Virus record (IMG/VR): IMGVR_UViG_3300045988_173726
Location: 1 to 64,000 of that record
DNA length: 64,000 bases
Direction: 5' to 3' (one strand)
DNA from: a virus
A program made the translations under genes and the position numbers. The notes beneath the pieces were generated by a model. It was not told the origin of the DNA. It searched no databases and saw only the letters and a list, made by a program, of their open reading frames with translations. Position 1 is the first letter of the stretch. The number at the start of each line of letters is the position of its first letter. Shown here in pieces: positions 1-62,052 of the stretch.

Positions 1-1
1 G

Positions 2-1060
2 TTAGAGCGAAAGATTAAATATCTTGAGAGTACAGTTATTCCTAAGTTAGTTGAGAAAAGGAATCAGAATTCAACTAAGCTTCAAGACGGAGTATACGTT
101 TCGTTGGTTCAACAAAGGAATCTAAGGTTAAGAGTAGTTGCAAAGAGGGCAAAACTAAACAGGCTAAAGCAGAGGCTTAGTAGCCTAAAGTACCAATTAA
201 AGACTGGAAAACTAAAACTGTGTTTTGGTACTAAGAGGTTGCTCAAGCAAGACTATAAGAAGTTTATTGAGCAACGAGATAGTCAAATGACTTTCATAGG
301 GGCTAGAGAGGAGACAGCATGTAATCAAGTTTTACAGTTGACTTACAATCGAAGAAGCAATCAGTTTTCGATTCGACTGCGTAAGGATTTTGGAGGATAC
401 AAGTCGGCTAAAGGTGACGATAGGTATGCTTATGGTAAAGTTTATTTCAATCATCACAAGGCACAAATCGTTTCAATTTTGAGATATAAGACTAGTCCTT
501 TATCTTATAGAATAATCAAAAGGAATGGGAGGTATTATCTCTACTGTACTTTTGAGTTTCAAGTGGAAAATGGTGATATAGTTACTCGTTCTTCTTATGG
601 GACGATAGGACTAGATTTTAACAAAGGTTTTGTGACCTTATCAGAGACGAATCAGTACGGTAATTTAGTAAAAACAAGGTTAATACCATATCGTTTTAAG
701 TCTGGATGTAAGACAAAAACAGACTTACAGGAGGTAGCAAATTATGCAGTTGGGTTAGCATTGAGGAGAGGTAAGGATGTTTGTATTGAGAATCTTGATT
801 TTAGAGCTACAAAAGCAAAAACAGAAACAAGGCTAGGAAGGAAATACAACGAGATGCTTCATTCATTAGCCTATCGGGAGTTTAGTAGTGCGCTGGAGAG
901 TGTAGCGTATAGAAACAGGGTTTGTTTAATCAAAGTCAAGCCAGCGTGGACATCTTGGTTAGCAGAGAAGATTTACTGTAAACCTATGAAGTTAAATATT
1001 CATGTAGGAGCTTCATATGTGATAGCAAGGCGTGGACAAGGGTATAAAGAAGTCGTGTAA
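2..1060 (+). CDS. TnpB-like (IS200/IS605 OrfB-type) protein, copy 1, 5' end cut by the window edge
   Basis: The frame is open from nt 2; LERKIKYLESTVIPKLVEKR aligns to about residue 92 onward of the 443-aa copy. Motifs in order: GLDFNKGFVTLSE (RuvC-I-like), CIENLDFR (RuvC-II-like), KPAWTSW (TnpB xPxYTSQ-like). There is no Asp after ENLDF and no CxxC pairs. Confidence 0.8.
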   Translation, partial: LERKIKYLESTVIPKLVEKRNQNSTKLQDGVYVSLVQQRNLRLRVVAKRAKLNRLKQRLSSLKYQLKTGKLKLCFGTKRLLKQDYKKFIEQRDSQMTFIGAREETACNQVLQLTYNRRSNQFSIRLRKDFGGYKSAKGDDRYAYGKVYFNHHKAQIVSILRYKTSPLSYRIIKRNGRYYLYCTFEFQVENGDIVTRSSYGTIGLDFNKGFVTLSETNQYGNLVKTRLIPYRFKSGCKTKTDLQEVANYAVGLALRRGKDVCIENLDFRATKAKTETRLGRKYNEMLHSLAYREFSSALESVAYRNRVCLIKVKPAWTSWLAEKIYCKPMKLNIHVGASYVIARRGQGYKEVV

Positions 1061-1287
1061 AGTCTTTAATAACAGTCCTATATAGATGTATTCAACGCAA
1101 GACAGTTGAGCATCTCCCTGTAGGACGGAGTTTACTAGAAATTCTGACAATAATTTTCATTGTGTGGCTACGGTTGAAATGAGATGAGTTAGGATGGAAT
1201 AGGTTAACCGTAAGACCTTGAGTTGAAAAACTCTAAAATTGAGCTAGAGATGCGAATTTCTTAAAGTTCGCATTTTCTAGTTACGGT
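1061..1287 (+). ncRNA. omega-RNA-like conserved 3' tail of element copy 1
   Basis: About 230 nt are conserved in all three copies. Shared hairpins are GATGTATTCAAC-GCAAGACA-GTTGAGCATC and GAGTT-loop-AACTC, plus a terminal hairpin ATGCGAA/TTCGCAT (1250-1273) followed by TTTTC. Conservation ends at 1287. The RNA start is unknown and may overlap the CDS. Confidence 0.55.
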
Positions 1288-11761: not shown

Positions 11762-11812
11762 GGCTGTTTCTTTAGCAAAGATATAGACAGTGAGTAGAGC
11801 AATGTGTTAAAA

Positions 11813-12034: not shown

Positions 12035-13021
12035 TTGGTAGGTCGGAGGCTATTAAATAGTGCTAGAATAAGAATCGGGTTGGGCAGGGGGGAAGAAGTG
12101 ATAGAGGACAAGTCTTTTAAGCAGAGTGTCGAGTATGCCCGAGGTAAGTTTACGGGGATGGATTGCGGAGTTTACGATGAGAGGGGAACGAGCCTTTCTG
12201 TAATCGGTCTTGAGCGGTCGGTAACAGGAGTTTATGTGCTTCCGAGTGCCGTGACGGGAGTTTTTCTTAACAGGGAGGCTATAGCGAAGAGTGGTATTAA
12301 GGTGCTGTCGCTTGAGAATTGTAGTAATCTTCGTAAGTTTGAGATACAAAACCCAACAAATCCTATGGTAGAGAGTCCGCTTTGGGAGCTGACGCTTGTT
12401 TTACCAAAGGAAGCGCCATGTCTAAGTAAGGTGGCAGTTAACTTAATATGTCATAAGTTCCGTTTAATTGGGGAATGCAATGGGATTGATTTGTCGCTCT
12501 ATTTGTGCAGTGAGTTAGAAATAAACAAGTCTGTTATGGACAATGCAAAGTCTCTATACTTCTCAAGTTGTAGCGGCATCGCGCGTATTTGTTTACCTGA
12601 AACTAACATAGCTGATTCGGTTTATCTGGTAAACACTGCTACTGAGCATCTTTCCTGTCATTTACGCAGTAATGGGCTAGGGATTACAAACTGTTGTAAG
12701 CTAAAGGTTATGTCAGTGTGGTTTGAGCGACTTGACGCACACTTGTTTTCGGGCTATACGCGCCGTAGAATTATTAGCTTAGAGGAGATTCATATAAAGG
12801 TTTCGAGGTTGTTCTTTTCAGAGATATGCCTTAGTCATGAGCGAGTAATAGATTTCTCATATGTTTCAAGAGTTCTTAAAACGATTAGTTTTACGACAGC
12901 GGATGGGTTTCGGGCAAGCAACTTCGATTCTGATAAGAGGTATAAGCTAATCGTGCCTAGTAAAGCGGAGTTTACAATGAGCAATGAGCTAGAGCCTTAT
13001 TTTGAGGTGGTTAGAAAGTAG
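12035..13021 (+). CDS. Array paralog 8, naturally lacking the N-terminal module (start codon uncertain)
   Basis: 328-aa ORF. KFTGMDC is already at about residue 38, followed by GVYVLPSAVTGVFL, IKVLSLENCSNLRKFEI and C-terminal LIVPSKAEFTMSNELEPYFEVVRK. The TTG start is taken from the track and there is no clear RBS. Confidence 0.7.
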   Translation: MVGRRLLNSARIRIGLGRGEEVIEDKSFKQSVEYARGKFTGMDCGVYDERGTSLSVIGLERSVTGVYVLPSAVTGVFLNREAIAKSGIKVLSLENCSNLRKFEIQNPTNPMVESPLWELTLVLPKEAPCLSKVAVNLICHKFRLIGECNGIDLSLYLCSELEINKSVMDNAKSLYFSSCSGIARICLPETNIADSVYLVNTATEHLSCHLRSNGLGITNCCKLKVMSVWFERLDAHLFSGYTRRRIISLEEIHIKVSRLFFSEICLSHERVIDFSYVSRVLKTISFTTADGFRASNFDSDKRYKLIVPSKAEFTMSNELEPYFEVVRK

Positions 13022-13023
13022 GG
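12986..13023 (+). repeat. 38-nt near-identical direct repeat at paralog 3' ends (partner 14455-14492)
   Basis: GAGCTAGAGCCTTATTTTGAGGTGGTTAGAAAGTAGGG versus GAGCTAGAGCGGTATTTTGAGGTGGTTAGAAAGTAGGG is 36/38 identical, while the gene bodies are strongly diverged. Confidence 0.8.
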
Positions 13024-13026
13024 GAC

Positions 13027-14490: not shown

Positions 14491-14492
14491 GG
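14455..14492 (+). repeat. Partner of the 38-nt repeat at 12986-13023
   Basis: See 12986-13023. Confidence 0.8.
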
Positions 14493-14498
14493 AACGGT

Positions 14499-15950
14499 AT
14501 GCCAAAGTTTATCGAGGGGAAAGCGCCGCTAGTGATTAGGAAAAAGCGGGTTGGAAGAGAGGCGGCTGGAGTTTACTTTGTCATAAAGGGTATCGTCGTA
14601 GACTGTGCAGGGGAGATAGTAGAATATCTTGTGACTCGGTTTCGGATAGACAATACTAATAGGTTAGCCGAGACAGAGAGTAGGACTGACGAATACAGTG
14701 AAGAAGAGTTTATAACGCTGGTTTCAGAGTTCGGGCATTTGTTTGCGGATTACAGGCTTGATGGAAATGAATATAAGCTTCGGTATACAGAGTTTCCAGT
14801 TTATCAGATGTTTGATGGTGCAGTAAGAGAATTGAAGTTGTTCAAATATAGTAAAGAGAGATTCTTAGCTTGTCTTGCAGATGACGAAATACTATTTGTA
14901 GATAGCATGGGTGAACTTATGCGCGGAAGTGTGTCGACTCTTTTAAGTGTCAGCATTTCACCTTCGGAAATGTTGGTTGGTAGCCTTGGAAAAAGGGTTG
15001 ACCGTAGGTATTTTACATTTGTTCGCGATTATAGGAAAAGCGATGCTTATATAAAGGAGTCAGCTAGGCGTAGGATGGTTGGTGATAGCTGTTGTTGTCT
15101 CATTCCGAGCAGTGAGCAGTTTTCGTTGTCGTATGTTGCAAGGCTAAAGGGAGTTAGTCATACAGGGGTATGCAGTGTTCCGTCTCTTGCGACCGTGTTC
15201 TACTGTTTTGGCAATGATTTAGATGAGAGCGGGGTTAAAGTAATTTCGTTTGAGAAATGCCTAGGGCTACGGAATATTAATATGAAATGCGGCAATGATT
15301 TTAGGGATAGAATAGCCGTAGTTTTGCCAAGCAGGAGTTTGTTTGGCGCTCCAAAAGTTTATATTGGGGCGTGTTGCAAAGAGTTTAGACTGGATGGATA
15401 TTGTAAACGGATTGAGCTATCTCTAACTAGGGTAGAGCATTTTGAGATAGACCCGAAGAGTTTATCTAACGCAAAGCAAGTGTATTTTGCGGTATGCAGG
15501 GGATTAAAGTCTTTGACCTTTAATAGAATAAGTGGCGTAATGCTGTACGATACAGACACAGAAGAAATTTTCTGTCGTGTTCCACTCGGAGTAAACGGGT
15601 TTCATAGAGGGATTAGGATAGAGAAATGTCTAGCGTTAAAACTCGTGAGGTTAAGTTCGGATAAGTTTAATCCAAGTGTGGTTGGAGGAATTTTTAAGGA
15701 GTGTGATAACTTGGAGGAGCTTTCTATCGAGGCTGACAGTTTGGTTCGTGACAGTTTGGTTATAGACCTTTGTAGCATCTCAAAGAAGTTGAAGCGATTT
15801 AGCCTAACACTTACTTCTAGGTTTAGCCGCGATAAAGCTATTTTAGGTGGCGCAGAGGGATGCGAGATTATTGCGCCTAGGGGAGCGGAGGTTAAGTTAG
15901 AGGGGAACGGAGTAGATTTAAGTAAGTATTTTACGGTGACATATAAGTGA
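14499..15950 (+). CDS. Array paralog 10
   Basis: 483-aa ORF. Motifs: MVGDSCCC, GVCSVPSLATVFYC, VKVISFEKCLGLRNINM, IEKCLALKLVRL, IIAPRGAEVKLEGNGVDLSKYFTVTYK. Confidence 0.85.
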   Translation: MPKFIEGKAPLVIRKKRVGREAAGVYFVIKGIVVDCAGEIVEYLVTRFRIDNTNRLAETESRTDEYSEEEFITLVSEFGHLFADYRLDGNEYKLRYTEFPVYQMFDGAVRELKLFKYSKERFLACLADDEILFVDSMGELMRGSVSTLLSVSISPSEMLVGSLGKRVDRRYFTFVRDYRKSDAYIKESARRRMVGDSCCCLIPSSEQFSLSYVARLKGVSHTGVCSVPSLATVFYCFGNDLDESGVKVISFEKCLGLRNINMKCGNDFRDRIAVVLPSRSLFGAPKVYIGACCKEFRLDGYCKRIELSLTRVEHFEIDPKSLSNAKQVYFAVCRGLKSLTFNRISGVMLYDTDTEEIFCRVPLGVNGFHRGIRIEKCLALKLVRLSSDKFNPSVVGGIFKECDNLEELSIEADSLVRDSLVIDLCSISKKLKRFSLTLTSRFSRDKAILGGAEGCEIIAPRGAEVKLEGNGVDLSKYFTVTYK

Positions 15951-25147: not shown

Positions 25148-27988
25148 ATGAGAGTATTACTGGCTGTTAGGCGGGCAGTAGGCAAGGTAATGAAATTTAT
25201 TTTCGGGTTTATACGGGGAGTATTAACTCTGCTAACGATTGTGCTGATTCTTTGCGGGGTCGTGGGTTACGGAGCATATCTAAAGTTCGGAGGGCAGTTA
25301 AAGGACGCGAGAGAGGCAGTCTACGACAAGATGTCAAAGATGGACGAAAACACTTTCTCGATGCTTTCCGACACAGAGGTTTACGACAAGGATGGAAACA
25401 AGATAGGCACGATAAACGCGGGTCACTACGAGTATACGCCGATAACGGAGATAAGTTCGTATATCCAGAACGGGTATATTGCGGTAGAGGATAAGCGGTT
25501 TAAGAGTCACTTTGGAGTAGACATAAAGGGAACTGTGCGGGCGGCGGTATCGTTGGTTAAGCATCGGGGAGCGATTCATCAAGGCGGGTCAACGATAGCG
25601 CAACAGGTCGTAAAGAATACGATGCTCGGGCAGAAGCGGACATTCAGTAGAAAAATAGAGGAGATGCTGATTGCGCCGTATGTGGATGCTAGGTACGGTA
25701 AGGACAAGGTAATGGAGTTCTACTGTAACACGAATTTCTACGGGCATCGGTGTTACGGAGTCGGGTCAGCGAGTAAGTATTATTTTGGGAAATCGGCAAA
25801 GGATTTAAGTTTGTCGGAGGCGGCATTGCTTGTCCGAATCAGTAACAGTCCAAGTAAGTATGACCCTGTTAAGAATCCAGACAAGGCATTAGCGGGTAGG
25901 AATTTCGTTTTGCATGAGATGCTTGCGTCTGGGTTTATCACAGATGAGGAGTGTAATGCGGCGATAGCCGAGCCGTTAGCGGTAATACAGAACACAACGG
26001 AGTCAACGAACGAGAATTATCAGACTTCTTACGCGATACACTGTGCGGCGCTTGAGCTTATGAAGATGGATGGCTTTAAGTTTAAGTATACCTTTAATGA
26101 CAAGGCAGATTATGACAGCTATATGTCAGAATATACGAGCGTTTATTCCGACAAGTCCGAATCAATACGCGCGGGCGGGTATGTAATAAGCACTAGCCTA
26201 GACAGTGCAATGCAGGGTATCGTGCAGAATAGGCTAGACAGTAATCTTGCAAAGTTTAAGGATATAGACCAAGAGACAGGGAAGTATGAGTTGCAGGGAG
26301 CGGCGGTTGTAGTAAACAACGAGACAAATTATGTGGTAGCTATCGTAGGCGGCAGAGGAACAGACGACCAGTTTAACAGAGGCTATTTATCCTACAGACA
26401 GCCAGGTTCTACTATAAAGCCGTTGCTAGATTACGCGCCAGCGTTTGATACCGGAGAGTTCAGCCCGTCTACTTATGTAGACGACCACAAGTTTGAGGGT
26501 TCGCCCGATAATTCGGGTGGTCGGTATTACGGCAGGATAACGATTCGGGAGGCGTTAAATCGCTCATTAAACACAGTCGCATGGCAGTTGTTGCAGGCGG
26601 TCGGAGTCAATAAGGGATTGTCGTATCTCGGTAACATGCGGTTTATGGGAATCTCGTATATAGATAACGGGGTAATGGCGACTAGCATTGGCGGTTTTAC
26701 GAATGGACTACGGGTAGTAGACATGGCGAAAGGCTATTCAACGCTTGCAAACGGCGGTATTTACAGCGATAAGACCTGTATCACGGGGATTAAGTTTAAG
26801 GGAGAGGACATCTTCACGGATAACAGTAAGAGTGTACGGGTCTATCAAGCGGATTCAGCGTATATGGTGACGGATGTGCTAAAGGGGACATTGGATACGC
26901 CGTATGGCACAGGCTATGGACTGGGAATTGAGGGTCAGATAGCGGCAGGCAAGACGGGAACAACGAACAGCTCAAAAGATGCTTGGTTTTGTGGGTATAC
27001 AAAGTATTACACGACAGCGGTGTTTATGGGGTATGACAATCCAAAGCCGATGGAGGGTGTATATGGCGCAACTTATTCGGGCAAGATATGGCACGACATT
27101 ATGACAGACATTCATAACGGGCTTCCGATGGCAGATTTCGACCGTCCAGATACGATATACGAGGCAAGCTATGACGGAAACGGCAGAGAGGTAGCGGGAG
27201 ACACGGGGAATCGCGACTTGTTTAGTGCTACAGCGAAGGAGAGAGCGGCGGTAGCGCGTGACGAGGCAATAAGCCGTAAGCGTTATGAGGCGGTAAAGAC
27301 AGAGGTAGACGCATATGAGAGTTGGTTTATCAACAGTGCCGAGGATGCAGAGAGCGTAGAGAATCGGTATCGAGAGATTCTAGGTAAGATAAGCAGAATT
27401 TCTGACGAAGAGCTTAGAAATGAGCTACTTACCAGAGCGGCGAGACATAACGATGCACTAGTAGAGAAGTTACCAGAGTGGGCAGACACGGTAGCAGAGT
27501 ATGAAAAGACTAAAGCAGAGGAGCAGGAGAAAGCTAAGATAGCAGAGAGCGAAAAGGCAGAGGAGAGTCGGAAGAGTGCCGAGAAAGCGAGAGATATACG
27601 GGAGTTTAATCGGGCATTGGCGGTCTTAACGGGGATGCAGTATAAGGATGACAGCGCATACGGGAAGGCGGTCGCAGATATAGACAGCGGTCTTAAGCGT
27701 TTAACAGAGTATCCAGAGTATAACGACTTTGCAAAGCAGTATAGCGCGGCGATAGAGGCTTACGGGAAGCTCCCGACATATGCAGAGTGGCAGGAGGCAG
27801 AGAGAAAGAAAGCCGAGGCGAGCAGTATTGCAGAGAGTGAGCGTGAGAGCGTTGCAGAGAGCTTGTCAGCGAAAGCGAGAGAGGCTACGCGGGCTACAGT
27901 ATCTCCAAGTGAGACCTTAGCGCCGAGTAGTACGGACATAAGCAATGCGGCGGTTCACAGTAACAGTGGGCGGATTATCGTGAGATGA
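25148..27988 (+). CDS. Class A penicillin-binding protein (GT51 glycosyltransferase + transpeptidase) with a long charged C-terminal tail
   Basis: N-terminal TM anchor. GT51 motifs: AVEDKRF, GGSTIAQQVVKN, RKIEE. Transpeptidase motifs: PGSTIKP (SxxK), SLN (SxN), GKTGTT (KTG). The last ~280 aa are E/A/K-rich and look coiled-coil. Confidence 0.9.
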   Translation: MRVLLAVRRAVGKVMKFIFGFIRGVLTLLTIVLILCGVVGYGAYLKFGGQLKDAREAVYDKMSKMDENTFSMLSDTEVYDKDGNKIGTINAGHYEYTPITEISSYIQNGYIAVEDKRFKSHFGVDIKGTVRAAVSLVKHRGAIHQGGSTIAQQVVKNTMLGQKRTFSRKIEEMLIAPYVDARYGKDKVMEFYCNTNFYGHRCYGVGSASKYYFGKSAKDLSLSEAALLVRISNSPSKYDPVKNPDKALAGRNFVLHEMLASGFITDEECNAAIAEPLAVIQNTTESTNENYQTSYAIHCAALELMKMDGFKFKYTFNDKADYDSYMSEYTSVYSDKSESIRAGGYVISTSLDSAMQGIVQNRLDSNLAKFKDIDQETGKYELQGAAVVVNNETNYVVAIVGGRGTDDQFNRGYLSYRQPGSTIKPLLDYAPAFDTGEFSPSTYVDDHKFEGSPDNSGGRYYGRITIREALNRSLNTVAWQLLQAVGVNKGLSYLGNMRFMGISYIDNGVMATSIGGFTNGLRVVDMAKGYSTLANGGIYSDKTCITGIKFKGEDIFTDNSKSVRVYQADSAYMVTDVLKGTLDTPYGTGYGLGIEGQIAAGKTGTTNSSKDAWFCGYTKYYTTAVFMGYDNPKPMEGVYGATYSGKIWHDIMTDIHNGLPMADFDRPDTIYEASYDGNGREVAGDTGNRDLFSATAKERAAVARDEAISRKRYEAVKTEVDAYESWFINSAEDAESVENRYREILGKISRISDEELRNELLTRAARHNDALVEKLPEWADTVAEYEKTKAEEQEKAKIAESEKAEESRKSAEKARDIREFNRALAVLTGMQYKDDSAYGKAVADIDSGLKRLTEYPEYNDFAKQYSAAIEAYGKLPTYAEWQEAERKKAEASSIAESERESVAESLSAKAREATRATVSPSETLAPSSTDISNAAVHSNSGRIIVR

Positions 27989-30294: not shown

Positions 30295-30648
30295 ATGAGT
30301 GAGCAGGACATAAAACTTATTAAGCAGTTTTTACTGTATCGGGAGTATTTGTCACAGGTTAGTCGTAAGGAAGCAGAGCAGATTCTTCGGCGTAGCGGTA
30401 ACTTAATGGGGATTATAGCTAACGCCTATCTTCAAGTGGAAGCCTATAATAAGATGGGTCGTCCCGTGCAGATGGGGGTTGTTCTGACTGCGCTAAAGGA
30501 GTGTAAGCGGGTGATACACCGTGACAGGGTGATAGCGTATCGTAACGAGTTAATAAGGACAGAGTATATGCGCGGGGCAAGTAAGCAGAGCCTTGCGGCT
30601 AAGTACGGTATCACTTCGATGACGGTTAAAACAGCGCTCGGGGGCTAA
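30295..30648 (+). CDS. Small HTH protein resembling sigma-70 region 4
   Basis: C-terminal RNELIRTEYMRGASKQSLAAKYGITSMTVKTALGG has the layout of a region-4 / LuxR-type helix-turn-helix. Confidence 0.45.
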   Translation: MSEQDIKLIKQFLLYREYLSQVSRKEAEQILRRSGNLMGIIANAYLQVEAYNKMGRPVQMGVVLTALKECKRVIHRDRVIAYRNELIRTEYMRGASKQSLAAKYGITSMTVKTALGG

Positions 30649-30652
30649 GTTT

Positions 30653-31267
30653 ATGGGTCGCTTTGACGAGAGGCGGGAGCGGGTAAGGAGTATTCCGATT
30701 CCAGATTATGTGGAGAAGGTAATAGTTCCCGAGATGCCGTGGTATTTTTCGGATTATACGGTGGACTTTGAGGTGCGTCCTGTCATTAAATGCCCGCTTC
30801 ACGGAGAGGATACGCCGTCATTTCGGTGGTATTCCGACACGAACACTTTTTACTGCTTCGGTTGCGGTAAAGGTGGGGACATAGTAAGCCTAGATATAGA
30901 GTTTCGCGGTCAGTCTGGTGATAAGATAACGCTTTCTGATTCGCTGGATTTCTTAGAGTCGGTCTTTTCGATAGACGGAGCAGTAGCTACGAGTCCAGTT
31001 AAGAATACGACAAAGATAGCGAGTAAGGGTAAGGTAGCCAGACTAAACGAGCAAAGCAATATAGAGCTTCTAAAGTTTAGCCGAGTCTATGGGGAGATAG
31101 ACAAGGCGGTAATAAAGAGTGACTTGCCGTTTACGGTTAGAGCGACTTTATATAAGTGTCTGGATGACGCAGGGAGACTCGTAAAGGATAATTTGGTAAG
31201 TGCTACGGACGCATTAGAGTATATCCGAGAGGTTTATCGGGAGTTAAGTGATGGCAGAGGTGAGTAG
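30653..31267 (+). CDS. Stand-alone primase CHC2 zinc-finger protein
   Basis: CPLHGEDTPSFRWYSDTNTFYCFGCGKGGDIVSL matches the DnaG-type zf-CHC2 signature. No Toprim or RNA-polymerase domain follows within its 204 aa. Confidence 0.75.
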   Translation: MGRFDERRERVRSIPIPDYVEKVIVPEMPWYFSDYTVDFEVRPVIKCPLHGEDTPSFRWYSDTNTFYCFGCGKGGDIVSLDIEFRGQSGDKITLSDSLDFLESVFSIDGAVATSPVKNTTKIASKGKVARLNEQSNIELLKFSRVYGEIDKAVIKSDLPFTVRATLYKCLDDAGRLVKDNLVSATDALEYIREVYRELSDGRGE

Positions 31268-35894: not shown

Positions 35895-37094
35895 ATGGTC
35901 TATAGATTTAGCGAGATGCTTGGCGATGAGGTTTATAAGAATCGGGTGATATTCCTGTTAGGGGAGCATTCGTTCTTTAATAACATAGTCATTGACAGAG
36001 TTAGGGACATTGCGATTCCGAGGGAAGAGGTAAATGCAGAGCAAGTTCTGGATTTAATGTCGGAGTTCGGTGTAACTTCGGATAAAGAGGTTTCTCGCGG
36101 AAACAGTGTAGGGTTTGATGAGTTTCTGGACAGTACGAGTAGCTATCCGATGCGAGGTTTCTGGTATTGTAGCGTAGAGTATTCAGAGCTAACGGATAAA
36201 CAGAGGGAGCGGCTTGGTGTTTATATGAAGTCACCGCAGGAGACTGGGTATCTGGTTATAACGGTCAAGGACTTTCGGAAGCATAGGGAAATTCTTCGTA
36301 ATAATCTGGTAGCTAGGGGTTCGAGCGTTTGTGCGGTGCGACTTAGCTTTCCAGATAGAGCGTCATTAACAGAGATAGTCAAGGGGAAGCTAAGTGACGG
36401 CGGGGTTAAAGTAGACGAGAGAGGCATACAGCTATTTATTTTGCGCTTAAGTAACGCTTATAACGAGTATAGTGACTGCCTATCATCTATTATCACAATG
36501 TATTCTGGGAAGAGCATCGGGTATGGAGAGGTGCTTGATGCGTTACAGGGGACAGAGAATTACGCGGTAGATGATTTTGTTTATGCTTTGTTAAATCCGA
36601 TGGGAAGCGGAAAGGTTATAAAGCGCAGGAAGATATATCGGATTTACGGGAGCTTGATACAGAGTATGAGCGCGGAGAGGCTTCTTAATACGCTGTTAAA
36701 TAAGATTGACATTTTTATTTCGTTTCGTAGGCTTATCAACAACGGAGATTTGCCCGTGTCTGTAGCGTATAGCGCAACAGAAGTGCAGGATAAGCTTCCA
36801 GAGGATAGCCGTCTAAAGACATATAGTGCCTATGTGTTTAAGCGTATGGCACGGATAGCGTCTATGGCATCTCTTGGGGACTGGCTCAATATGCGGCTAA
36901 TGCTTAGTGAGGCAAAGAGGTCGGGGAAGATAGGGCTTGAGGATAGGTGTGAGAAGGCGCTGTTTTCCATGATGCATCGTAGCGTGCTTGGGGACGAGCG
37001 GTTTTTTAATGATTCGGGGTTTATAAGCACTGTGGGGGATGGTGAGCTTTATAGCCTAAATACGGTATTCTTTCGAGTAACTAGCAGTTTCTAA
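35895..37094 (+). CDS. Possible DNA polymerase III delta (HolA)-like clamp-loader subunit; 3' end supplied by the IS left end
   Basis: The N-terminus NRVIFLLGEHSFFNNIVIDRVRDI resembles the HolA N-terminal pattern, and the 399-aa size fits. The family call is weak. The stop at 37092-37094 lies inside element copy 2. Confidence 0.3.
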   Translation: MVYRFSEMLGDEVYKNRVIFLLGEHSFFNNIVIDRVRDIAIPREEVNAEQVLDLMSEFGVTSDKEVSRGNSVGFDEFLDSTSSYPMRGFWYCSVEYSELTDKQRERLGVYMKSPQETGYLVITVKDFRKHREILRNNLVARGSSVCAVRLSFPDRASLTEIVKGKLSDGGVKVDERGIQLFILRLSNAYNEYSDCLSSIITMYSGKSIGYGEVLDALQGTENYAVDDFVYALLNPMGSGKVIKRRKIYRIYGSLIQSMSAERLLNTLLNKIDIFISFRRLINNGDLPVSVAYSATEVQDKLPEDSRLKTYSAYVFKRMARIASMASLGDWLNMRLMLSEAKRSGKIGLEDRCEKALFSMMHRSVLGDERFFNDSGFISTVGDGELYSLNTVFFRVTSSF

Positions 37095-37173
37095 CAATGT
37101 AGAAGAAGCAGGAATTATTTTTCGATTTTCTATGTGTTAGTTAAGGTTTTCATTAGGAGCGTGGTGAGTTGTA

Positions 37174-38505
37174 ATGCAGAAACTAAAGTTGACTATAGTA
37201 GCACAGCTACACGAGTGGAGTAACCGATGTTTAATTGAATATATGGAAGCTTCTCGTAGAGATTACGGTAAAGCATTGCGAGAAGCTTTCTACGCAATAA
37301 AACGAGGAGGAATAGATAAGTCAAAGTACAACACATACCTCCAGTATAAATACGGAATTTCTAATCGAACTGCAAATTCTATCATTCTTGACGCTCAAGG
37401 ACGATTTAACGCCCTAAAGGAGTTAAAGGAGTATGAAAGGAAGCAGTTAGAAAGAAAAATTAAGTATCTTGAAAACACAGTCATTCCTAAGTTAGTTGAG
37501 AAAAGGAAGCAGAACTCAATTAAGCTTCAAGACGGAGTATCTGTTTCGTTGGTTCAACAACGGAATCTACGGTTAAGAGTAGTTTCAAAGAAGGCTAAAC
37601 TAAACAGGTTGAAGCAGAAGCTTGCGGTGTTAAAGTATCAATTAGAAACAGGAAGGTTAAAGCTTTGTTTTGGAACGACAAGGTTGCTCAAGCAAGACCA
37701 TGATAAGTTTATTGAACATCGAGATAGTCAAATGACTTTCATAGGAGATAAAGAGAAAACAGCATGTAATCAAGTTTTACAGTTGACCTACAATCGAAGA
37801 AGCAATCAGTTTTTGATTCGACTGCGAAAAGATTTCGGAGGATACAAGTCTGCTAAAGGTGACAATAGATATGCTTACGGTAGAGCTTATTTCAATCATC
37901 ATAAGGCACAGCTTGTTTCAATTTTAAGGTTTAAGACCAGTCCTCTATCTTATAGGATAATCAAGAGGAATGGCAGATATTACCTATATTGTGTATTTGA
38001 GTTTCAAGTAAGGGATGGCGATGTAGTTACTCGTTCTTCTTATGGAACTATTGGATTAGATTTTAACAAAGGTTTTGTGACCTTATCAGAGACGAATCAG
38101 TACGGACATTTAGTAAAGACACAGTGTATGCCGTATCGTTTTAAGTCTGGAAACAAGACAAAGACTGACCTACAAGGAGTAGCAAATCATGTAGTTAAGC
38201 TAGCATTGCAGACAGGTAAAGATGTTTGCATAGAAAATTTAGATTTTAGAGTAACGAAATCTAAAACAGAAGCAAAAATGGGAAAGAAGTACAACGATAT
38301 GCTTCATTCTCTAGCATATCGTGAGTTTAGTGACACGATGGAGCGTGTAACTTATAGACACAGAGTAGGATTAAACAAAGTCAACCCTGCATGGACATCA
38401 TGGCTGGCAGAGAAGATTTATTGCAAGCCTATGAAGTTGAATATACATACAGGAGCTTCATATGTAATAGCAAGGTGCGGGCAAGGATATAAGGACGCTG
38501 TGTAA
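37174..38505 (+). CDS. TnpB-like protein, copy 2 (443 aa), lacking RuvC-III Asp and zinc finger
   Basis: Motifs in order: ISNRTANSIILDAQGRFNALKE, YRIIKRNGRYYLYCVFEFQ, GLDFNKGFVTLSE, CIENLDFR, KYNDMLHSLAYREF, VNPAWTSW, then WLAEKIYCKPMKLNIHTGASYVIARCGQGYKDAV. Confidence 0.85.
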   Translation: MQKLKLTIVAQLHEWSNRCLIEYMEASRRDYGKALREAFYAIKRGGIDKSKYNTYLQYKYGISNRTANSIILDAQGRFNALKELKEYERKQLERKIKYLENTVIPKLVEKRKQNSIKLQDGVSVSLVQQRNLRLRVVSKKAKLNRLKQKLAVLKYQLETGRLKLCFGTTRLLKQDHDKFIEHRDSQMTFIGDKEKTACNQVLQLTYNRRSNQFLIRLRKDFGGYKSAKGDNRYAYGRAYFNHHKAQLVSILRFKTSPLSYRIIKRNGRYYLYCVFEFQVRDGDVVTRSSYGTIGLDFNKGFVTLSETNQYGHLVKTQCMPYRFKSGNKTKTDLQGVANHVVKLALQTGKDVCIENLDFRVTKSKTEAKMGKKYNDMLHSLAYREFSDTMERVTYRHRVGLNKVNPAWTSWLAEKIYCKPMKLNIHTGASYVIARCGQGYKDAV

Positions 38506-38743
38506 AGAGTGTTTCAAAGATAGCCTTATCCTATATAGATGTATCAACGCAAGACAGTTGAGCATCTCCCTGTAGGATGAAGTTTAATAGAAGCTCTGAC
38601 AACAATTCTTATTGTGTGGCTACGGTCGAAATGAGATGAGTTAGGGTGGAATAGGTTAACCGTAAGACCTTGAGTTGTAAAACTCTAAAATTGAGCTAGA
38701 GATGTGAATTTCCTAATTTATTTTCTCATTTTCTAGTTACGGT
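38506..38743 (+). ncRNA. omega-RNA-like conserved 3' tail of element copy 2
   Basis: Hairpins at 38538-38566, 38672-38685 and 38702-38729. AACCGTAA (38658-38665) is complementary to both CTACGGT (38620-38626) and the terminal TTACGGTT (38737-38744). Confidence 0.55.
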
Positions 38744-38826
38744 TTGAGCTAGCAGAGCTTCCGAAAGATGTAGTTGTTTATCGGGATGGAGTTCGTGTGG
38801 ACGATAAAGTGCTTACGTTTCAGTAA
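38737..38826 (+). pseudogene. Displaced 3' end of the HolA-like gene (candidate)
   Basis: An open frame runs from just after the element's TAG to TAA at 38824-38826. Deleting 37087-38743 joins the 35895 ORF in frame to IELAELPKDVVVYRDGVRVDDKVLTFQ*. It ends 11 nt before the next ATG. Confidence 0.4.
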
Positions 38827-39871: not shown

Positions 39872-40573
39872 ATGGCGACTTTTCGCAGATGGTGTATGTC
39901 GGCAAAGCTGTTTGAGCCAGAGAGTACGCACGAGGCGAGTGCGTATATCGCGAAGAATTACAATAAGCTGGTAAGCTACGCGAGGGGTCAAGGTATAGAC
40001 CCTGCGAAGGCAGAGGATTTGATTGTGGATGTAACGATTTCGGTGTGCCGTGCGGAGTGGCTGGGCGAGTGGGTAACTGCGGTAGAGTGCGGGTATATGC
40101 AGATAGAGCAGTATATCTACGGGAAAATCAAGAAGTACGCGATGTTTCCAGCCTATAGGCGGGCAAGCACGGGGGCGTGGGTTCGTAAGAAAGCAGACGG
40201 CAAAGAGGTTTATATGCAAGTCGAGATACCTTCCTGTGGGGCAGAGGATGCCGAGGAAGGTAGTATGCCAGACTATCAGCTAGCATATATGAATCTATCG
40301 ACATACGATAATCTGGAGACAGTCGAGGCAGAGGAGTCGTTTGAAGAGGAGCTAGCATATGTTTTAAGCTTTGACGAGATGAGTAACGGCTTAATCAGCA
40401 GGATTTTACGGAATCTGGACTACTACAAAGCGAACGCGAGTTTTCTGGTGAGTAGCGGGGTTTCGGAGATGTTTAACAGTTTCGGGGAAGCGTTTGCGGA
40501 AGCGTTTGAGGATATAGTTAAAACGACCGCTAGGGATGACAGCAAATTGATAAGAGCGCTTAGAAAGGCGTAG
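39872..40573 (+). CDS. Sigma-factor-like protein (region-2-like N-terminus); start moved to ATG 39872
   Basis: RBS GGAGGA 8 nt upstream. YIAKNYNKLVSYARGQGIDPAKAEDLIVDVTISVCRAEW resembles sigma-70/ECF region 2 (..AEDLvQdv..). The rest is not clearly assignable. Confidence 0.35.
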   Translation: MATFRRWCMSAKLFEPESTHEASAYIAKNYNKLVSYARGQGIDPAKAEDLIVDVTISVCRAEWLGEWVTAVECGYMQIEQYIYGKIKKYAMFPAYRRASTGAWVRKKADGKEVYMQVEIPSCGAEDAEEGSMPDYQLAYMNLSTYDNLETVEAEESFEEELAYVLSFDEMSNGLISRILRNLDYYKANASFLVSSGVSEMFNSFGEAFAEAFEDIVKTTARDDSKLIRALRKA

Positions 40574-40634
40574 GGGGAGCTTATTATAAGGGGATAATAC
40601 GGGGCAGGGCTTTACTTTCGGAGGTATCGTATAT

Positions 40635-43211: not shown

Positions 43212-46200
43212 ATGCTTTGGACAACGGGGACATACACGGATAATCAGACTTATAGCGTGATAGCTTGCATAGATAAGCAGTATTCCGAGGTTATAATCGG
43301 GTTTAGCGGGAAGGTAATATCCGCGTATAAGCTGGAAGGTCTTAGGGACGAGTATTTAGCGGGAAGTCCGATGGCGAAAGAGGTTTATAAGACTTTGAAG
43401 CGCGGGATAGGCGGTTGTAAGTCAAGTAACGGAGTCCCTGTGCCGTTTCAGCTAGGGGCGTGTGTAGAGCATAGTTTTCAGAGGGCTGGGGTAGATTTTT
43501 CGATACGGCGGTTTAACAGTGGTTTATGCGGGGCGTATATAGCGTCCCGCAACTTTACGCTTGACTTAAGTTTAGCGAGTTCTGCGCCGAGTGGTCTTAA
43601 TTTGCCGTATGTGAAGTTAGCGAAAGAGGCGAGTGACGCAAGCTTTGACGCAAGTAGCACATATGTCCGTCCGCTTGAGGAGATAGGTTTATTTAAGGAC
43701 ATAAGTTGGCTAAAGGATAAGCGGTATAAGGTTGTAACGGACGAGCGGGAAGCGGAGGAGTTGTTTAGCCGCATTGAGGAGAAGATACGGACAAACCCGA
43801 ACACGCCGATAGCGTTTGATACGGAGACAACGGGCTTAAAGATAAATATGTTCGGGAAGATAGGCTCGGAGCAGGCAGAGGAGCTTAAGCGGTATAACGA
43901 GAGTGTAGGGAAGTCGAAGCAGAAAGGGGTAGATAAGCTAGTCGGGTTTATTTACTGCCTAGAGCCGAATGTGAGTTATTATTTCCCCGCAGGGAATAGG
44001 AAGTTTCATAACTTGTATTCTGACATAAACGCCCCTTTAACGAAACAGACAGCGGATAGGATAAAGGTAGATTATACGGTAGGAAGGTTTCGTAGTCGGG
44101 ATGACGACATGGCGAGGTATATCCGAAGGACTAGGGTAGAGGATTTCGGGTGTGATGTCATTTTGATGGAGCGAAACAGGGATATACTGGAGAAAGGGTA
44201 TTTAGTCGGACATAACGGCACATTCGATGCGAAGGTAGCCTATTTATACAGCATAGACATAAACTTCCGCGAAGATAGCATGATATTGCATCAGCTTGTT
44301 TACAAGTTCCGTTCTACGACAAGCAACCGAGGTGAGAGTTCTGCATTAAAGTACTTGGTAAAGCGGGAGTTTGGAGTAGACCAGCTTGAGCTTACAGACT
44401 TTTTCGACCCGAATGCGTATAGTACGACAAAGACAAAGAAGAAGGAGTTAGGGATTGACTTCTCGTATATGGATTTAGCGGGGTCAACAGCGTATGCGCC
44501 AGCAGACGGAGATTTTACGCTACAGTTGTTTATCAGATATAAGAGTGCGCTTCTTAGTAAGTTCAAATCACTTGAGTATATTTACTATGTGGAGGTGCTT
44601 GTAAGTCTCGCGATAGCGTATATGGAGTTTTACGGCTATCGTATAAACGAAGAGAAGATAGATGCGACTCGTGACAAGTATTTAGTGCAGAAAGCGGAGC
44701 TTGAGCATAAGATACGACAGATGGTAGGATATTCGACCGAGAAAGAGGAAGCGGTGTTTGCGTCTTTAGCGGGGGCGGCAGACAGAGAGGCGAAGATGGG
44801 GGTATTGCCAGAGGCTATAGCGGTTATGGCAGATAGTGAGAACGCCTTAAATTTGACTTCGCCTATAAAGGTAGCAGAGCTGTTTTATGATGTGCTTAAA
44901 ATGCCGATGGGGGAAAAGAAGTCAGTCAGTAAGACAGCGCTTGCGGGGCTAAGTAAGCAAGCGGGTAAGAACGGGGAGATAGTTCGGGTTTATCAAGAGT
45001 GGAAAGGCGTGGATACGCTCCTCACTAAGTTTTTCGGTAGGTTACAGGAGTTTATGTACCCGAACGGGTTTATTTTCTCGCATTTCGGTCAGATAAGTAC
45101 GGCGACAGGTCGAATGAGTTGCAGTAGCCCGAACGCACAGCAGTTTCCGAAGTCGATTACGGCGATAATCGAGCCGAGGAAAGATTGTGTAATGTTTGAC
45201 GCAGACTTTTCGCAGATAGAGTATCGGACGCTGGTTGCTCTTGCGGGTGAGGAATCGTTAAAGGAGAAGTTTAGAGACCCCGACATGGATTATCACACGA
45301 CTATGGCGAGTTTAATGTATGGGGTAGATTACGCTTCTGTTACACCGAAGCAGAGAGGCGAGGCGAAAGGCTTTAACTTTGGTATACCCTACGGCATGGG
45401 AATCACTTCTCTAACGATAAGGTTATTTGGAACAGCTACGAAGGAGAATATTGAGGCGGCGAAAGAGAAGTACGAGTTATATTTCAGAGACCAGCCGAAT
45501 GTCAGAAAGTTTTTTGCGAATGTCAAGGAGTCGGCGGAGGTTTACGGGTATACGGAGACGAAGTGGCACAGGAGGCGGTATTATTCGTTTAGGGATAAGG
45601 ACGGGAATTTAAGCAGTAAGGCAAAGGCTTCTGCGCTAAGGCAGGCAGGAAACGCGGTAATACAGGGAACGGCGGCAGATATATTCAAGATTTCGGTCGC
45701 TCGGAATTTCAGCTATATCCGTAGGAACGGGCTAATGGGGAAGCTGTTTATCGTGAATATGATACACGATGAGCAGTTAATGGAATGTAATGTAAAAGAG
45801 TTAAATCCGAAGCGTGTATTAGCGGATGTAGTGCAGAATATGGAGTTGAAGCTAGACGGATTCCCGCCGTTGTATGTAGGAGCGGGAGTAGGGTTATCTT
45901 GGAAAGACGCGAAGGGAAAGATGGCAGAGATACATCCCGACCTAGCGAACGAGTATATCGAAGAATCAAAGGGTACATCGATATTTAGAGGCGAGGATAG
46001 TGTATCGGAGAGTCCAGAAGATGTATTAAGCTACTTTAACGAGCGTGTAGTAGACTTTAGAGTACGGAAGATAACGAAGTATGTCTTAGACAAGGGGAAT
46101 TGGGGAAAGCCGATACATCCTGTCATCGGAAATTTGTTATCTTTGCAGTTTGACTACGGAGTAAACGAAGAGGTAGCGGCGAAGTATACAGAGGCAAACG

Positions 46201-46718
46201 GGTATACGAAAGACGAGATAGCGGAAGCGAAGAAGAACATCCCGACCGAGCAGTTAAAGCGGTTTATGGTAGATAAGGGGATAGCGGTAAATCCAGATAA
46301 CTTTAGGTCGGCAGAGGTAGAGCATGAGGTAGAGTCGGATAAAGTTTACGAGGACGAGAGCGAAGAAGAGGGCTTAGAGGAAGCCGAGGCAGAGGAGTAT
46401 AACGAGTTTAAGCTAATAGATGAGAGCAAGGCAGTGTTTGGGGTGGGTATTACGGAGTTGGTGAGTCGGTTCAAGGTCTTTGTTTCCGAGAGCCGAGGGA
46501 TATGCGGGATAGACAGTGAGTTTCTGCGAGGTCTTAAAGACAGAGAGGGTTTAATCGCCTATTTGAATGAGCATCTTTGCGAAAAGGGTGTGGACGGGAG
46601 CATGGAGCTTATGATGTTGGTAGGTGGGGGAGCTTTAACGCATTCTGGACAGTATATAAGAGGGGTAACGCGGGATGAGATGCTAAGAGTGGCGAGAGGG
46701 ACTGTGCGTACCGCTTAA
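43212..46718 (+). CDS. Family A DNA polymerase with 3'-5' exonuclease domain and long terminal extensions
   Basis: Exo motifs: AFDTETTGL, GHNGTFDAKV, YAPADGDFTLQL. Pol motifs: DADFSQIEYRTLVALAG (A), RGEAKGFNFGIPYGMG (B), VNMIHDEQL (C). About 190 aa precede the exo domain. About 280 aa follow the palm, including an acidic stretch ESDKVYEDESEEEGLEEAEAEEY. Confidence 0.9.
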   Translation: MLWTTGTYTDNQTYSVIACIDKQYSEVIIGFSGKVISAYKLEGLRDEYLAGSPMAKEVYKTLKRGIGGCKSSNGVPVPFQLGACVEHSFQRAGVDFSIRRFNSGLCGAYIASRNFTLDLSLASSAPSGLNLPYVKLAKEASDASFDASSTYVRPLEEIGLFKDISWLKDKRYKVVTDEREAEELFSRIEEKIRTNPNTPIAFDTETTGLKINMFGKIGSEQAEELKRYNESVGKSKQKGVDKLVGFIYCLEPNVSYYFPAGNRKFHNLYSDINAPLTKQTADRIKVDYTVGRFRSRDDDMARYIRRTRVEDFGCDVILMERNRDILEKGYLVGHNGTFDAKVAYLYSIDINFREDSMILHQLVYKFRSTTSNRGESSALKYLVKREFGVDQLELTDFFDPNAYSTTKTKKKELGIDFSYMDLAGSTAYAPADGDFTLQLFIRYKSALLSKFKSLEYIYYVEVLVSLAIAYMEFYGYRINEEKIDATRDKYLVQKAELEHKIRQMVGYSTEKEEAVFASLAGAADREAKMGVLPEAIAVMADSENALNLTSPIKVAELFYDVLKMPMGEKKSVSKTALAGLSKQAGKNGEIVRVYQEWKGVDTLLTKFFGRLQEFMYPNGFIFSHFGQISTATGRMSCSSPNAQQFPKSITAIIEPRKDCVMFDADFSQIEYRTLVALAGEESLKEKFRDPDMDYHTTMASLMYGVDYASVTPKQRGEAKGFNFGIPYGMGITSLTIRLFGTATKENIEAAKEKYELYFRDQPNVRKFFANVKESAEVYGYTETKWHRRRYYSFRDKDGNLSSKAKASALRQAGNAVIQGTAADIFKISVARNFSYIRRNGLMGKLFIVNMIHDEQLMECNVKELNPKRVLADVVQNMELKLDGFPPLYVGAGVGLSWKDAKGKMAEIHPDLANEYIEESKGTSIFRGEDSVSESPEDVLSYFNERVVDFRVRKITKYVLDKGNWGKPIHPVIGNLLSLQFDYGVNEEVAAKYTEANGYTKDEIAEAKKNIPTEQLKRFMVDKGIAVNPDNFRSAEVEHEVESDKVYEDESEEEGLEEAEAEEYNEFKLIDESKAVFGVGITELVSRFKVFVSESRGICGIDSEFLRGLKDREGLIAYLNEHLCEKGVDGSMELMMLVGGGALTHSGQYIRGVTRDEMLRVARGTVRTA

Positions 46719-60296: not shown

Positions 60297-60412
60297 TTGG
60301 TAAGTCAGTGGTTTCAAACAATATAGAAGAAAGTTGAAATAATTCTCGATTTACATGTTTTTCATTAAGGATGGTTTTGTTAGGATATGTCGTATTGTGG
60401 AGAGGAATTGAA

Positions 60413-61744
60413 ATGTGTAGTAGAAAGTTTACAGTAGTGACTCAACTACATGAGAGGAATAACAGGGGTGTAATTGAATACATTGAATCTTCCCGTAGAG
60501 ATTACGGGAAAGCAATGCGAGAGACTTTCTATGCAATCAAGCGTGGTGGTTTCAATAAGTCACGGTATAAGACCTATCTTCAAAATAAATACAAAATTGT
60601 TAGTCGGACTGCTAATTCTATTGTTTTTGACGCACAAGGGCGCTTTAATGCTCTAAAGGAGTTGAAAGAGTATGAGAGGAAGCAGCTGGAACAGAAGATT
60701 AAACACCTTGAAGATATAGTCATTCCTAAGTTAGTGGAGAAAAGGAATCAGAATTCAATTAAACTTCAAGACGGATTATCTGTCTCGTTGATTCAACAAA
60801 GGAATCTAAGATTAAAGGTGGTATCAAAGAAAGCAAAGTTAAACAGGTTGAAGCAGAAACTAGCCACACTAGAGTACCAATTAAAATCTGGAAAATTAAA
60901 CATTTGTTTTGGTACGAAAAGACTGCTCAAGCGAAGTTACAAGAAGTTTAGCGAGCAAAGAGATAGTCAAATGAGTTTTGTAGGAGCTAGGGCGGAGACA
61001 GCATGTAACCAAGTTTTACAGTTGACTTACAATCGAAGGAGTAATCAGTTTTTGATTCGGTTGCGTAAAGATTTTGGAGGGTACAAGTCTGCTAAAGGTG
61101 ATGCTAGATACGCTTACGGAAAAGTTTATTTCAATTATCATAAAGCACAAATTGTCTCAATTTTGAGGTCTAAGGCTAGTCCTTTAAGCTACAGAATAAT
61201 CAAAAAGAATTCCAGATATTATCTCTGTTGTGCTTTCGAGTTTCAAGTAGATAACGGTGAAGTTGTTACTCGCTCTAGCTACGGAACTGTTGGATTAGAT
61301 TTTAACAAAGGTTTTGTGACCTTATCAGAGACTAATCAGTACGGACATTTAGTGCAAACACAGTTTATGCCTTATCGTTTCAAGTCTGGAAACAAGACTA
61401 AGACAGATTTACAGGTGGTATCAAATTATGTGATTAAATTAGCATTGAGAAAAGGTAAAGACGTTTGTATTGAGAATCTTGACTTTAGAGCAAAGAAGTC
61501 TAAGATAGAGGCAAAGGTAGGGAAGAAATACAATGAGATGCTTCATTCATTAGCTTATCAAGAGTTTATTGAGGTGATTGAGAGCGTAGCCTATAGAAAC
61601 AGAGTTGGCTTAAACAAAGTCAATCCTGCGTGGACATCATGGTTAGCAGAGAGGATTTACTGTAATCCCATGAAGCTAAATATACATACAGGGGCTTCAT
61701 ATGTAATAGCAAGGCGTGGACAGGGGTATAAAGACGCGGCGTAA
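60413..61744 (+). CDS. TnpB-like protein, copy 3 (start moved to ATG 60413 to match copy 2)
   Basis: MCSRKFTVVTQLHERNNRGVIEY... aligns with MQKLKLTIVAQLHEWSNRCLIEY... of copy 2. It has the same GLDFNKG, CIENLDFR and NPAWTSW motifs and the C-terminus NIHTGASYVIARRGQGYKDAA. Confidence 0.85.
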   Translation: MCSRKFTVVTQLHERNNRGVIEYIESSRRDYGKAMRETFYAIKRGGFNKSRYKTYLQNKYKIVSRTANSIVFDAQGRFNALKELKEYERKQLEQKIKHLEDIVIPKLVEKRNQNSIKLQDGLSVSLIQQRNLRLKVVSKKAKLNRLKQKLATLEYQLKSGKLNICFGTKRLLKRSYKKFSEQRDSQMSFVGARAETACNQVLQLTYNRRSNQFLIRLRKDFGGYKSAKGDARYAYGKVYFNYHKAQIVSILRSKASPLSYRIIKKNSRYYLCCAFEFQVDNGEVVTRSSYGTVGLDFNKGFVTLSETNQYGHLVQTQFMPYRFKSGNKTKTDLQVVSNYVIKLALRKGKDVCIENLDFRAKKSKIEAKVGKKYNEMLHSLAYQEFIEVIESVAYRNRVGLNKVNPAWTSWLAERIYCNPMKLNIHTGASYVIARRGQGYKDAA

Positions 61745-61971
61745 AGTTTTTAACAGTCCTATACAGATGTATTCAACGCAAGACAGTTGAGCATCTCCCT
61801 TTAGGGCTAAGTTTATTATCAGAAGTTTTGACAACAATTCTCATTGTGTGGCTACGGTCGAAATGAGATGAGTCAGAGTGGAGTAGGTTAACCGTAAGAC
61901 CTTGAGTTGAAAAACTCTAAAATTGAGCTAGAGATGTGGATTTCTTAATTTTCGTGTTTTCTAGTTACGGT
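61745..61971 (+). ncRNA. omega-RNA-like conserved 3' tail of element copy 3
   Basis: It has the same conserved blocks as copies 1 and 2. The terminal hairpin is ATGTGGA/TTCGTGT (61934-61957, several G-U pairs). Confidence 0.5.
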
Positions 61972-62052
61972 CGAGGGAAGTAGTGTCGGCGGCGAGCGTA
62001 CCGGTGGGTTTAACAGCACTGTAGATAGATAAGAGAGGGAAGCGAGGTAGAG

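Follow-up and report, generated by a model that had tools for sequence, protein, structure and literature searches.

Five major clades of TnpB were distinguished by Altae-Tran et al. (2023, PNAS; PMC10691335). In one of them, RIIIr-4, the RuvC-III Asp is replaced by His and the C4 zinc finger has been lost; the authors listed this clade among the branches 'specifically represented in viruses' and inferred from conservation that it is catalytically active. One RIIIr-4 protein, orthologue 39 from Nocardiopsis dassonvillei, was among those tested by Nety et al. (2023; PMC10278001): its ωRNA had a clear 5' processing site, and it was negative in a screen for a target-adjacent motif (TAM) on double-stranded DNA (dsDNA). 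That screen found 32 of 59 orthologues of all clades (54%) inactive, and the authors speculated that TnpBs inactive in it may target other substrates. In AmaTnpB, ωRNA processing requires the RuvC site. We found no later literature on RIIIr-4. Here we analysed positions 1-64000 of the IMG/VR virus record IMGVR_UViG_3300045988_173726, read as a single strand from 5' to 3' (64 kb, hereafter the window), which carries three copies of a tnpB-like gene. Copy 2 (positions 37174-38505) was the starting point of the analysis.

By their histidine, their loss of the zinc finger and their profile similarity, we assign the encoded proteins to RIIIr-4 as new members. A sequence-only reading of this DNA had proposed that they may form a new RNA-guided system, a claim which fails because the Asp-to-His, zinc-finger-less clade had already been published (PMC10691335); what is new is these gut jumbo-phage members, the variant itself being known. 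Our preferred reading, held with moderate confidence, is that the copies are selfish TnpB-ωRNA elements of ~1.67 kb with a functional, rearranged RuvC site, which would achieve homing or retention by guided cutting or nicking.

Assignment of the encoded proteins to RIIIr-4

Copies 1 and 3 align without gaps to copy 2 at 79% and 83% protein identity, in line with the difference of one residue in five that had been estimated by eye, and the TnpB motifs quoted in the sequence-only reading are present in all three. Family models recognized the proteins poorly: NCBIfam guided_TnpB matched aa 327-409 only, at E 4.7e-9 and with 36 bits where its cutoff is 100, TIGR01766 reached 28 bits against a cutoff of 32, and Pfam OrfB_IS605 and OrfB_Zn_ribbon did not match the TnpB-like open reading frames (ORFs). 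A sequence search of the PDB with the single protein returned coiled-coil noise only, and the family profile gave one match, to Cas12m from RuvC-II to the xPxxTS strand (E 3e-4). Similarity to TnpB at the level of sequence profiles is real but weak. Structure prediction gave a clearer picture. The AlphaFold2 (AF2) model of copy 2, built from a 67-sequence alignment of relatives 23-60% identical, had a mean pLDDT of 94.3 and a pTM of 0.86. Its best Foldseek match in the PDB was Cas12f (E 7e-9), followed by Cas12m, CasX, Cas-lambda, Fanzor2 and RuvC, and among viral models it matched TnpB/Fanzor-like 'transposases' of phages and giant viruses. The predicted fold is unambiguously that of TnpB/Cas12, with a RuvC (RNase H-like) lobe and a WED/REC architecture, so that the suspected relationship to TnpB holds.

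Orthologue 39, a labelled RIIIr-4 protein of which 399 residues were available, aligned with the family profile at an hhalign probability of 99.15% (E 3.8e-19). This match is far better than that to typical TnpB (34%, E 4e-4). A representative from the published tree shares the C-terminus VHEAAAYVxGRRGxGYKE and matches copy 2 at E 8e-22. The window copies resemble RIIIr-4 in having His for the RuvC-III Asp, in lacking a C4 zinc finger, in their long 3' ωRNA and in their presence in viruses, and no clade-defining feature differs. The window copies, from a gut jumbo phage, are shorter, at 443 aa, with an RF03065 ωRNA of ~215 nt, whereas the Nocardiopsis orthologue is 529 aa long with a 466-nt scaffold.

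The RuvC active site

The sequence of ISDra2 TnpB was verified against PDB 8BF8/8EXA before alignment. Since hhalign to this single sequence was too weak to use, a profile of 35 ISDra2-type sequences was used instead, which aligned D296 with D191, E354 with E278 and NPAWTS with SPYFPS (E 4e-4, with a probability of only 34%). The alignment stops at the canonical zinc finger, and the RuvC-III register was therefore scored separately. In an ungapped profile scan of the last helix, the best register placed H425 on ISDra2 D361, with N-I-H-T-G-A-S-Y-V-I opposite D-R-D-E-N-A-A-L-N-I; its score of -5.3, against a mean of -20.3 and a standard deviation of 6.2, corresponds to a weak z of ~2.4. The canonical D-E-D triad is thus not present: D296 and E354 are aligned, and the third position is His425. 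In the AF2 model, a 13-residue helix (408-420) stands in place of the zinc finger, and the final helix begins at I424-H425. After NPAWTSW a CxxC pair is absent from every copy, all three ending in KLNIH(T/V)GASYVIAR(R/C)GQGYK(D/E), and none of the 240 family sequences carries two CxxC motifs. Retention of the RuvC-I Asp and RuvC-II Glu, His at the third position and absence of the zinc finger, all read earlier from the three copies, are therefore borne out, the D361 register at the strength just given.

A search of 1.84 billion cluster representatives returned 1329 relatives at E<1e-3, of which 660 were at E<1e-10. His is present in 118 of 118 close homologues and in 121 of the 122 representatives that include the C-terminal helix; in the 67-sequence alignment E354 is present in 67/67, and D296, N298 and H425 in 66/67 each. 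The ratio of nonsynonymous to synonymous substitution (dN/dS) among the three copies is 0.11-0.14 at dS 0.7-1.1, which agrees with the suggestion that the C-terminal state is maintained. Since a dead site should drift, whereas D, E and H persist in relatives of only 23-60% overall identity, the site is unlikely to be dead, and we infer that D296/E354/H425 is rearranged rather than dead. It is extremely improbable that the copies are decaying transposon relics encoding a dead protein under no selection. Such relics would fit the missing D-E-D triad and zinc finger and the lack of a match to the Pfam OrfB models, but they are refuted by the selection data, with dN/dS of 0.11-0.14 at dS ~1 and intact ORFs of identical length; the near-invariant motif in hundreds of relatives and the intact structured RNA described below also speak against them.

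An Asp near the C-terminus of copies 2 and 3 had also been pointed out. It is present, but it is not incidental: an acidic residue occupies this column (D441 in copy 2, Glu in copy 1) in 60 of 63 family members, and 108 of 115 representatives have one within +14 to +18 of the His. Even so, we do not think that D441 replaces the catalytic Asp, because it lies 16 residues after His425 and, in the model, beyond the end of the predicted helix. A further observation on the N-terminal half is that aa 79-147 of copy 2 (37408-37614) weakly match the Pfam domain DUF7307 'Pam3 gp33-like protein' (E 6e-4, below cutoff), which probably reflects the coiled-coil composition of these helices, not homology.

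ωRNA and presumptive guides

Directly 3' of each ORF lies a full-length RF03065 RNA, scoring 197, 196.7 and 192.3 bits against a gathering threshold of 94.2 and spanning model positions 1-214 of 214; the copy 2 match in cmscan (197 bits) had E 7.6e-47. The scaffold is 90-92% identical between copies, compared with 80-83% for the ORFs. Conservation between copies begins at TAACTAGCAGTTTC and drops abruptly after ...TTTTCTAGTTACGG, that is, after GTTACGG, where unique flank begins; neighbouring genes differ from copy to copy. The hairpin within 10 nt of the right end (RE) belongs to the RF03065 structure, and shuffled sequence folds as well as the left end (LE) does (z -0.6 and +0.8). The 'conserved ends' of the sequence-only reading thus exist, and their identity is that of a full-length RF03065 RNA (192-197 bits). 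A scan for promoters on the + strand gave nothing above expectation.

An abrupt end of conservation is a criterion used in the field for the boundary between ωRNA scaffold and guide. Because conservation ends at ...GUUACGG, the presumptive guide of each copy is its own right flank. In the window there is no second match to any of the three guides at up to 2 mismatches in 16 nt, host genomes lying outside this search. RF03065 itself is restricted to a sub-branch near the phage copies and was present at 1 of 20 bacterial loci.

Empty alleles, junctions and a candidate TAM

Copy 2 is absent from five IMG/VR jumbo-phage contigs whose flanks are 93-97% identical to those in the window, four of which also lack copy 3. 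The sequence of the presumptive copy 2 guide is present in the empty alleles as well. In a junction survey of 80 phage-derived loci (these and the other loci compared carry L numbers where they have to be told apart), the right end TTTCT[AG]GTTACGG was invariant and was followed by at least 55 distinct right flanks, and at least 6 copies were present on one 272-kb phage contig. Left junctions have the form ...GGG/TAAxTCAGCAGTTTC (a slash marks the junction). GGG ends 18 of 23 distinct left flanks, compared with a background of 0.022 per position (binomial P 4e-26), and is part of the target wherever an empty allele is available. Four exact insertions without duplication were found, at TTTATGGG/TCGC, ATATGGG/TTTTCG, GGCGGG/TTTAAT and GAGGGG/GCTTGAG. 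These junctions make GGG a candidate TAM. Judged from them, the elements follow the logic of IS200/IS605: they insert on the 3' side of a short motif, do not duplicate the target and have the right flank as presumptive guide. At the self junction the sequence is CGG/, which differs from GGG/ by one base, and this could protect the occupied allele. A motif beginning ATAAG, derived from the sequence just 5' of the guide matches in the empty alleles, was considered as the TAM and rejected: GGG stands there in only about half of the cases, whereas it is consistently found in left flanks.

A tblastn search of the window and of 160 loci (953 kb in total) with IS608 TnpA (verified against the PDB) as the query found no Y1 TnpA, one fragment excepted, so the elements are non-autonomous. 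The sole hint of a transposase partner is at L036 (714-848): an ORF of 44 aa with an HUH-type motif (YSLQYHLVWCTK), possibly a degraded Y1 TnpA, immediately precedes a Lachnospiraceae homologue. In bacteria, tnpB-only units of 1.6-2.0 kb occur in at least 10 copies per genome in Halolactibacillus miurensis, Caldanaerobacter subterraneus and Thermovorax subterraneus, and single copies of the family occur in Lachnospiraceae, Megasphaera, Enterococcus and others. Shorter relatives with the His motif form repeat units 87-95% identical in H. miurensis (L061-L064, L068, L071, L076) and C. subterraneus (L069, L074, L079-L081). At L016/L026, the first 37 nt of the right flank (TATTTTAATTTAACTGGTAAGTCATATTACGGGAAAAG) contain an LE-like start (GGTAAGTCA), with an RE-like end (TTACGG) a few bases further on, and the left flank of this element also contains GTTACGGGG; this right flank may have been left by an element that suffered an internal deletion.

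These distributions bear on the idea that the copies serve a domesticated phage function, as exapted anti-host, anti-competitor or regulatory genes and not as selfish elements. Strong selection on both protein and RNA, several copies per phage genome and the published notice of RIIIr-4 in viruses (PMC10691335) are what such a function would predict. Against it, phages 93-97% identical to one another do not share the positions of their copies, insertions destroy phage genes (a dUTPase-like gene and a small ORF) and take away the start of ORF 30653, and the guide is whatever adjoins the right end. The family also behaves as a multi-copy insertion sequence in bacterial chromosomes. PADLOC gave no match, and PHROGs gave nothing informative. 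We therefore regard domestication as quite unlikely.

Proposed mechanism and target DNA loss at the right end

In the mechanism that we favour, each locus is a tnpB-only element of the IS200/IS605 type, which comprises a short left end, a gene for a 443-aa TnpB (D296/E354/H425, with conserved N298) and a ~215-nt ωRNA abutting the flank. The D296/E354/H425 site would most likely mature the ωRNA, a likely step by analogy with orthologue 39 and AmaTnpB. The resulting ribonucleoprotein would then, most likely, recognize GGG followed by the right-flank sequence, as it stands in the uninterrupted allele of a sister or co-infecting genome; RNA-guided recognition of such GGG-flanked empty alleles is likely. 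In the reading that we prefer, it would cut or nick the empty allele, and recombinational repair would copy the element in. This would amount to homing or retention guided by RNA, of the kind demonstrated for canonical TnpB and akin to what free-standing homing endonucleases do in T4-like phages; that DNA cutting leads to it is plausible but unproven.

Several points weigh against this mechanism. DNA cleavage has been reported for no RIIIr-4 protein, and the sole tested orthologue was negative in the dsDNA TAM screen. The third carboxylate is truly missing, and no other acidic residue is invariant. The register of H425 on D361, which draws on the z of ~2.4, on motif and secondary-structure logic and on the published statement, is weak. 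No TnpA that could catalyse new insertions was found in the 953 kb of loci. Furthermore, of the 12-14 sites for which there is an empty allele, 8-10 have lost 16-1590 bp beside an intact right end, which plain TAM-guided homing does not explain.

At these deletion-bearing sites the left junction is still GGG/LE, and the 5' neighbour of the guide in the empty allele is not GGG. Examples are copy 3 versus L006, L012 versus L027, L016, L017, L121, L122 and L156. Copy 3 and L006, like L012 and L027, share the left junction and differ at the right, the right junction of L006 lying 243 bp upstream of that of copy 3. As each deletion adjoins the right end, it provides the ωRNA with a new guide each time. 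Three other causes of the loss were considered and rejected. Two nearby insertions followed by recombination between copies do not agree with downstream junctions that lack GGG; self-cleavage followed by deletion does not agree with the failure to keep 15-20 nt of the old flank; and the junction sequences do not fit inherited differences in gene content. At L017 the element substitutes for ~1.6 kb of an array of paralogous genes that matches window positions 1459-15950.

The losses have damaged phage genes. Copy 3 replaces ~490 bp carrying a dUTPase-like gene, of which the last ~20 codons survive (61971-62040). In related phages this gene is intact, with ~165 codons ending in ...GERTGGFNSTG (L007-L010, ~7270-7760). 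Three distinct right junctions lie inside it, in the window, L006 and L126, which suggests that it is an insertion hot spot. Copy 2 removed the stop codon of the upstream gene together with the ribosome-binding site and first ~55 codons of a small ORF (MRRMSLILVHCG...), whose remnant is found at 38743-38826 and whose intact region lies at ~7185-7370 in L001-L005. The upstream ORF, 35895-37094, now stops four codons later, within the left end of the element. The elements are thus active remodellers of the phage genome, with the dUTPase-like gene removed and other ORFs truncated.

The points above also bear on a possible, though doubtful, alternative to guided cutting, a softened form of the idea in the sequence-only reading, in which the protein is an RNA-guided binder or nickase that would bind GGG-flanked targets, make no double-strand breaks and act through R-loop-stimulated recombination, the blocking of competitor phages or regulation. 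D-E-H would then be kept only for ωRNA maturation or for cutting RNA or single-stranded DNA. This would agree with the only RIIIr-4 orthologue assayed, which processed its ωRNA and was negative in the dsDNA TAM screen (PMC10278001), and with the third carboxylate and zinc finger missing family-wide. However, a single negative is weak evidence where 54% of orthologues failed, and exact-ended mobility with a guide that is always the flank suits the logic of a selfish nuclease; no conserved external target in the window, and no fixed neighbour gene, was seen that would recall TldR. In addition, related RNase H-fold nucleases function with a His in the site, as illustrated by H983 of the Cas9 RuvC domain, H143 of Tth RuvC and the DEDH site of Argonaute.

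We consider it unlikely, in particular, that the D-E-H proteins of RIIIr-4 make no double-strand breaks, employ RuvC for ωRNA maturation or nicking, and spread in jumbo phages through recombination stimulated by R-loops or nicks. If that were true, target loss at the right end would be a built-in re-programming of the guide, and strand transfer by the RNase H-fold protein itself could explain the absence of TnpA.

For the preferred mechanism of guided cutting or nicking, the window offers favourable material. The copies are a compact, well-modelled RIIIr-4 case of 443 aa with a defined ωRNA and an exact boundary (...GUUACGG/guide), and natural filled and empty alleles supply real targets and the candidate TAM GGG. 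Whether a D-E-H RuvC site cuts DNA bears on the evolution of the TnpB/Cas12 active site, and such a protein might become a zinc-finger-free editor with a G-rich TAM.

Comparison with other systems

Like canonical IS200/IS605 TnpB (ISDra2, PDB 8EXA/8H1J), the window proteins have WED, REC and RuvC parts and an aligned RuvC-I Asp and RuvC-II Glu; the elements also share the 3'-end ωRNA, the right-flank guide and insertion at a short motif without duplication. In contrast to ISDra2 TnpB, they have His for D361, and the stretch from the xPxxTS strand to the last helix contains no zinc finger. Their N-terminal half is long and helical, their candidate TAM is GGG and not TTGAT, and no TnpA partner was found. 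Cas12f and Cas12m are the best structural matches to the copy 2 model. Unlike in type V CRISPR systems, the guide would come from a transposon-end ωRNA, and there is no direct-repeat CRISPR array near any copy.

TldR proteins, which Wiegand et al. are said to have described in 2024, are reportedly nuclease-dead, TnpB-like repressors with an altered RuvC-III and an adjacent guide RNA, some of them in prophages. They are also said to be immobile and tied to fliC/oppF-type genes, with guides that match a promoter elsewhere and with degenerate catalytic residues. In contrast, the window elements are mobile and multi-copy, their guide is the flank, and D, E and H are near-invariant. Of the picture drawn in the sequence-only reading, the multi-copy element in a phage genome and its 3' guide RNA have stood, whereas the analogy with TldR and the idea of a dead protein have not, because of this mobility, target logic and conservation of catalytic residues; a RIIIr-4 orthologue, besides, processes its own ωRNA.

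Free-standing homing endonuclease genes of T4-like phages (Seg/Mob) are selfish, scattered and polymorphic for presence or absence, and replace neighbouring DNA (PMC13565253). The window elements share the scatter, the polymorphism and the replacement of neighbours, and homing is proposed for them. They differ from Seg/Mob in that the target would be set by RNA rather than protein, and the nuclease belongs to an unrelated family.

Coordinates and genomic context

Table 1. Positions of the three tnpB copies, their parts and two empty targets in the window
Feature	Position	Strand	Remarks
Copy 2, complete tnpB-only mobile element	37078..38742	+	1665 bp; left end, ORF and ωRNA scaffold; absent from five related phages
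Copy 2 tnpB ORF	37174..38505	+	443 aa, RIIIr-4 type
Copy 2 key codons	D296 38059-38061; E354 38233-38235; H425 38446-38448; acidic D441 38494-38496	+	
Copy 2 left flank triplet, candidate TAM	37075..37077	+	GAG in the window; GGG at the same place in L002-L005
Copy 2 ωRNA scaffold	38528..38742	+	Rfam RF03065 (IS605-orfB-I); 3' end ...UUUUCUAGUUACGG
Copy 2 presumptive guide TTTGAGCTAGCAGAGCTTCC	38743..38762	+	Right flank, remnant of small ORF; 20-nt length assumed
Copy 3, complete element	60301..61970	+	1670 bp; ORF 60413-61744, 443 aa; ωRNA 61756-61970
Copy 3 presumptive guide TCGAGGGAAGTAGTGTCGGC	61971..61990	+	Right flank
Copy 1, cut by window start	1..1286	+	ORF 2-1060 (aa 92-443); ωRNA 1075-1286; presumptive guide 1287-1306
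Empty target for L022 element	30647..30670	+	Insertion point 30657/30658 (TTTATGGG/TCGC); exact, no target duplication
Empty target for L004/L019 element	40568..40602	+	16 bp replaced in L004/L019

The window resembles a portion of a phage genome. Every long ORF is on the + strand, and strand composition is strongly skewed across positions 1-64000, with 29.7% G and 14.9% C on that strand; a tRNA search of the 64 kb found none. Among GenBank phages no close relative of the window was found, blastn with the element gave no match, and PolA (43212-46718) is at most 30% identical to anything among them. Exact or near-exact relatives of the 37174-38505 protein were found on contigs of 240-275 kb, assigned to Caudoviricetes where the source gives a name.

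Besides the family A DNA polymerase, the window encodes a Toprim protein and a class A penicillin-binding-protein-like protein, the latter lying inside a phage-like genome: its 946-aa ORF (25148-27988) contains transglycosylase (E 4e-56) and transpeptidase (E 1e-24) domains. Positions 1459-15950 hold the array of paralogous genes mentioned above, each of ~450-560 aa, whose junction sequences are repeated (direct repeats D5 and D6).

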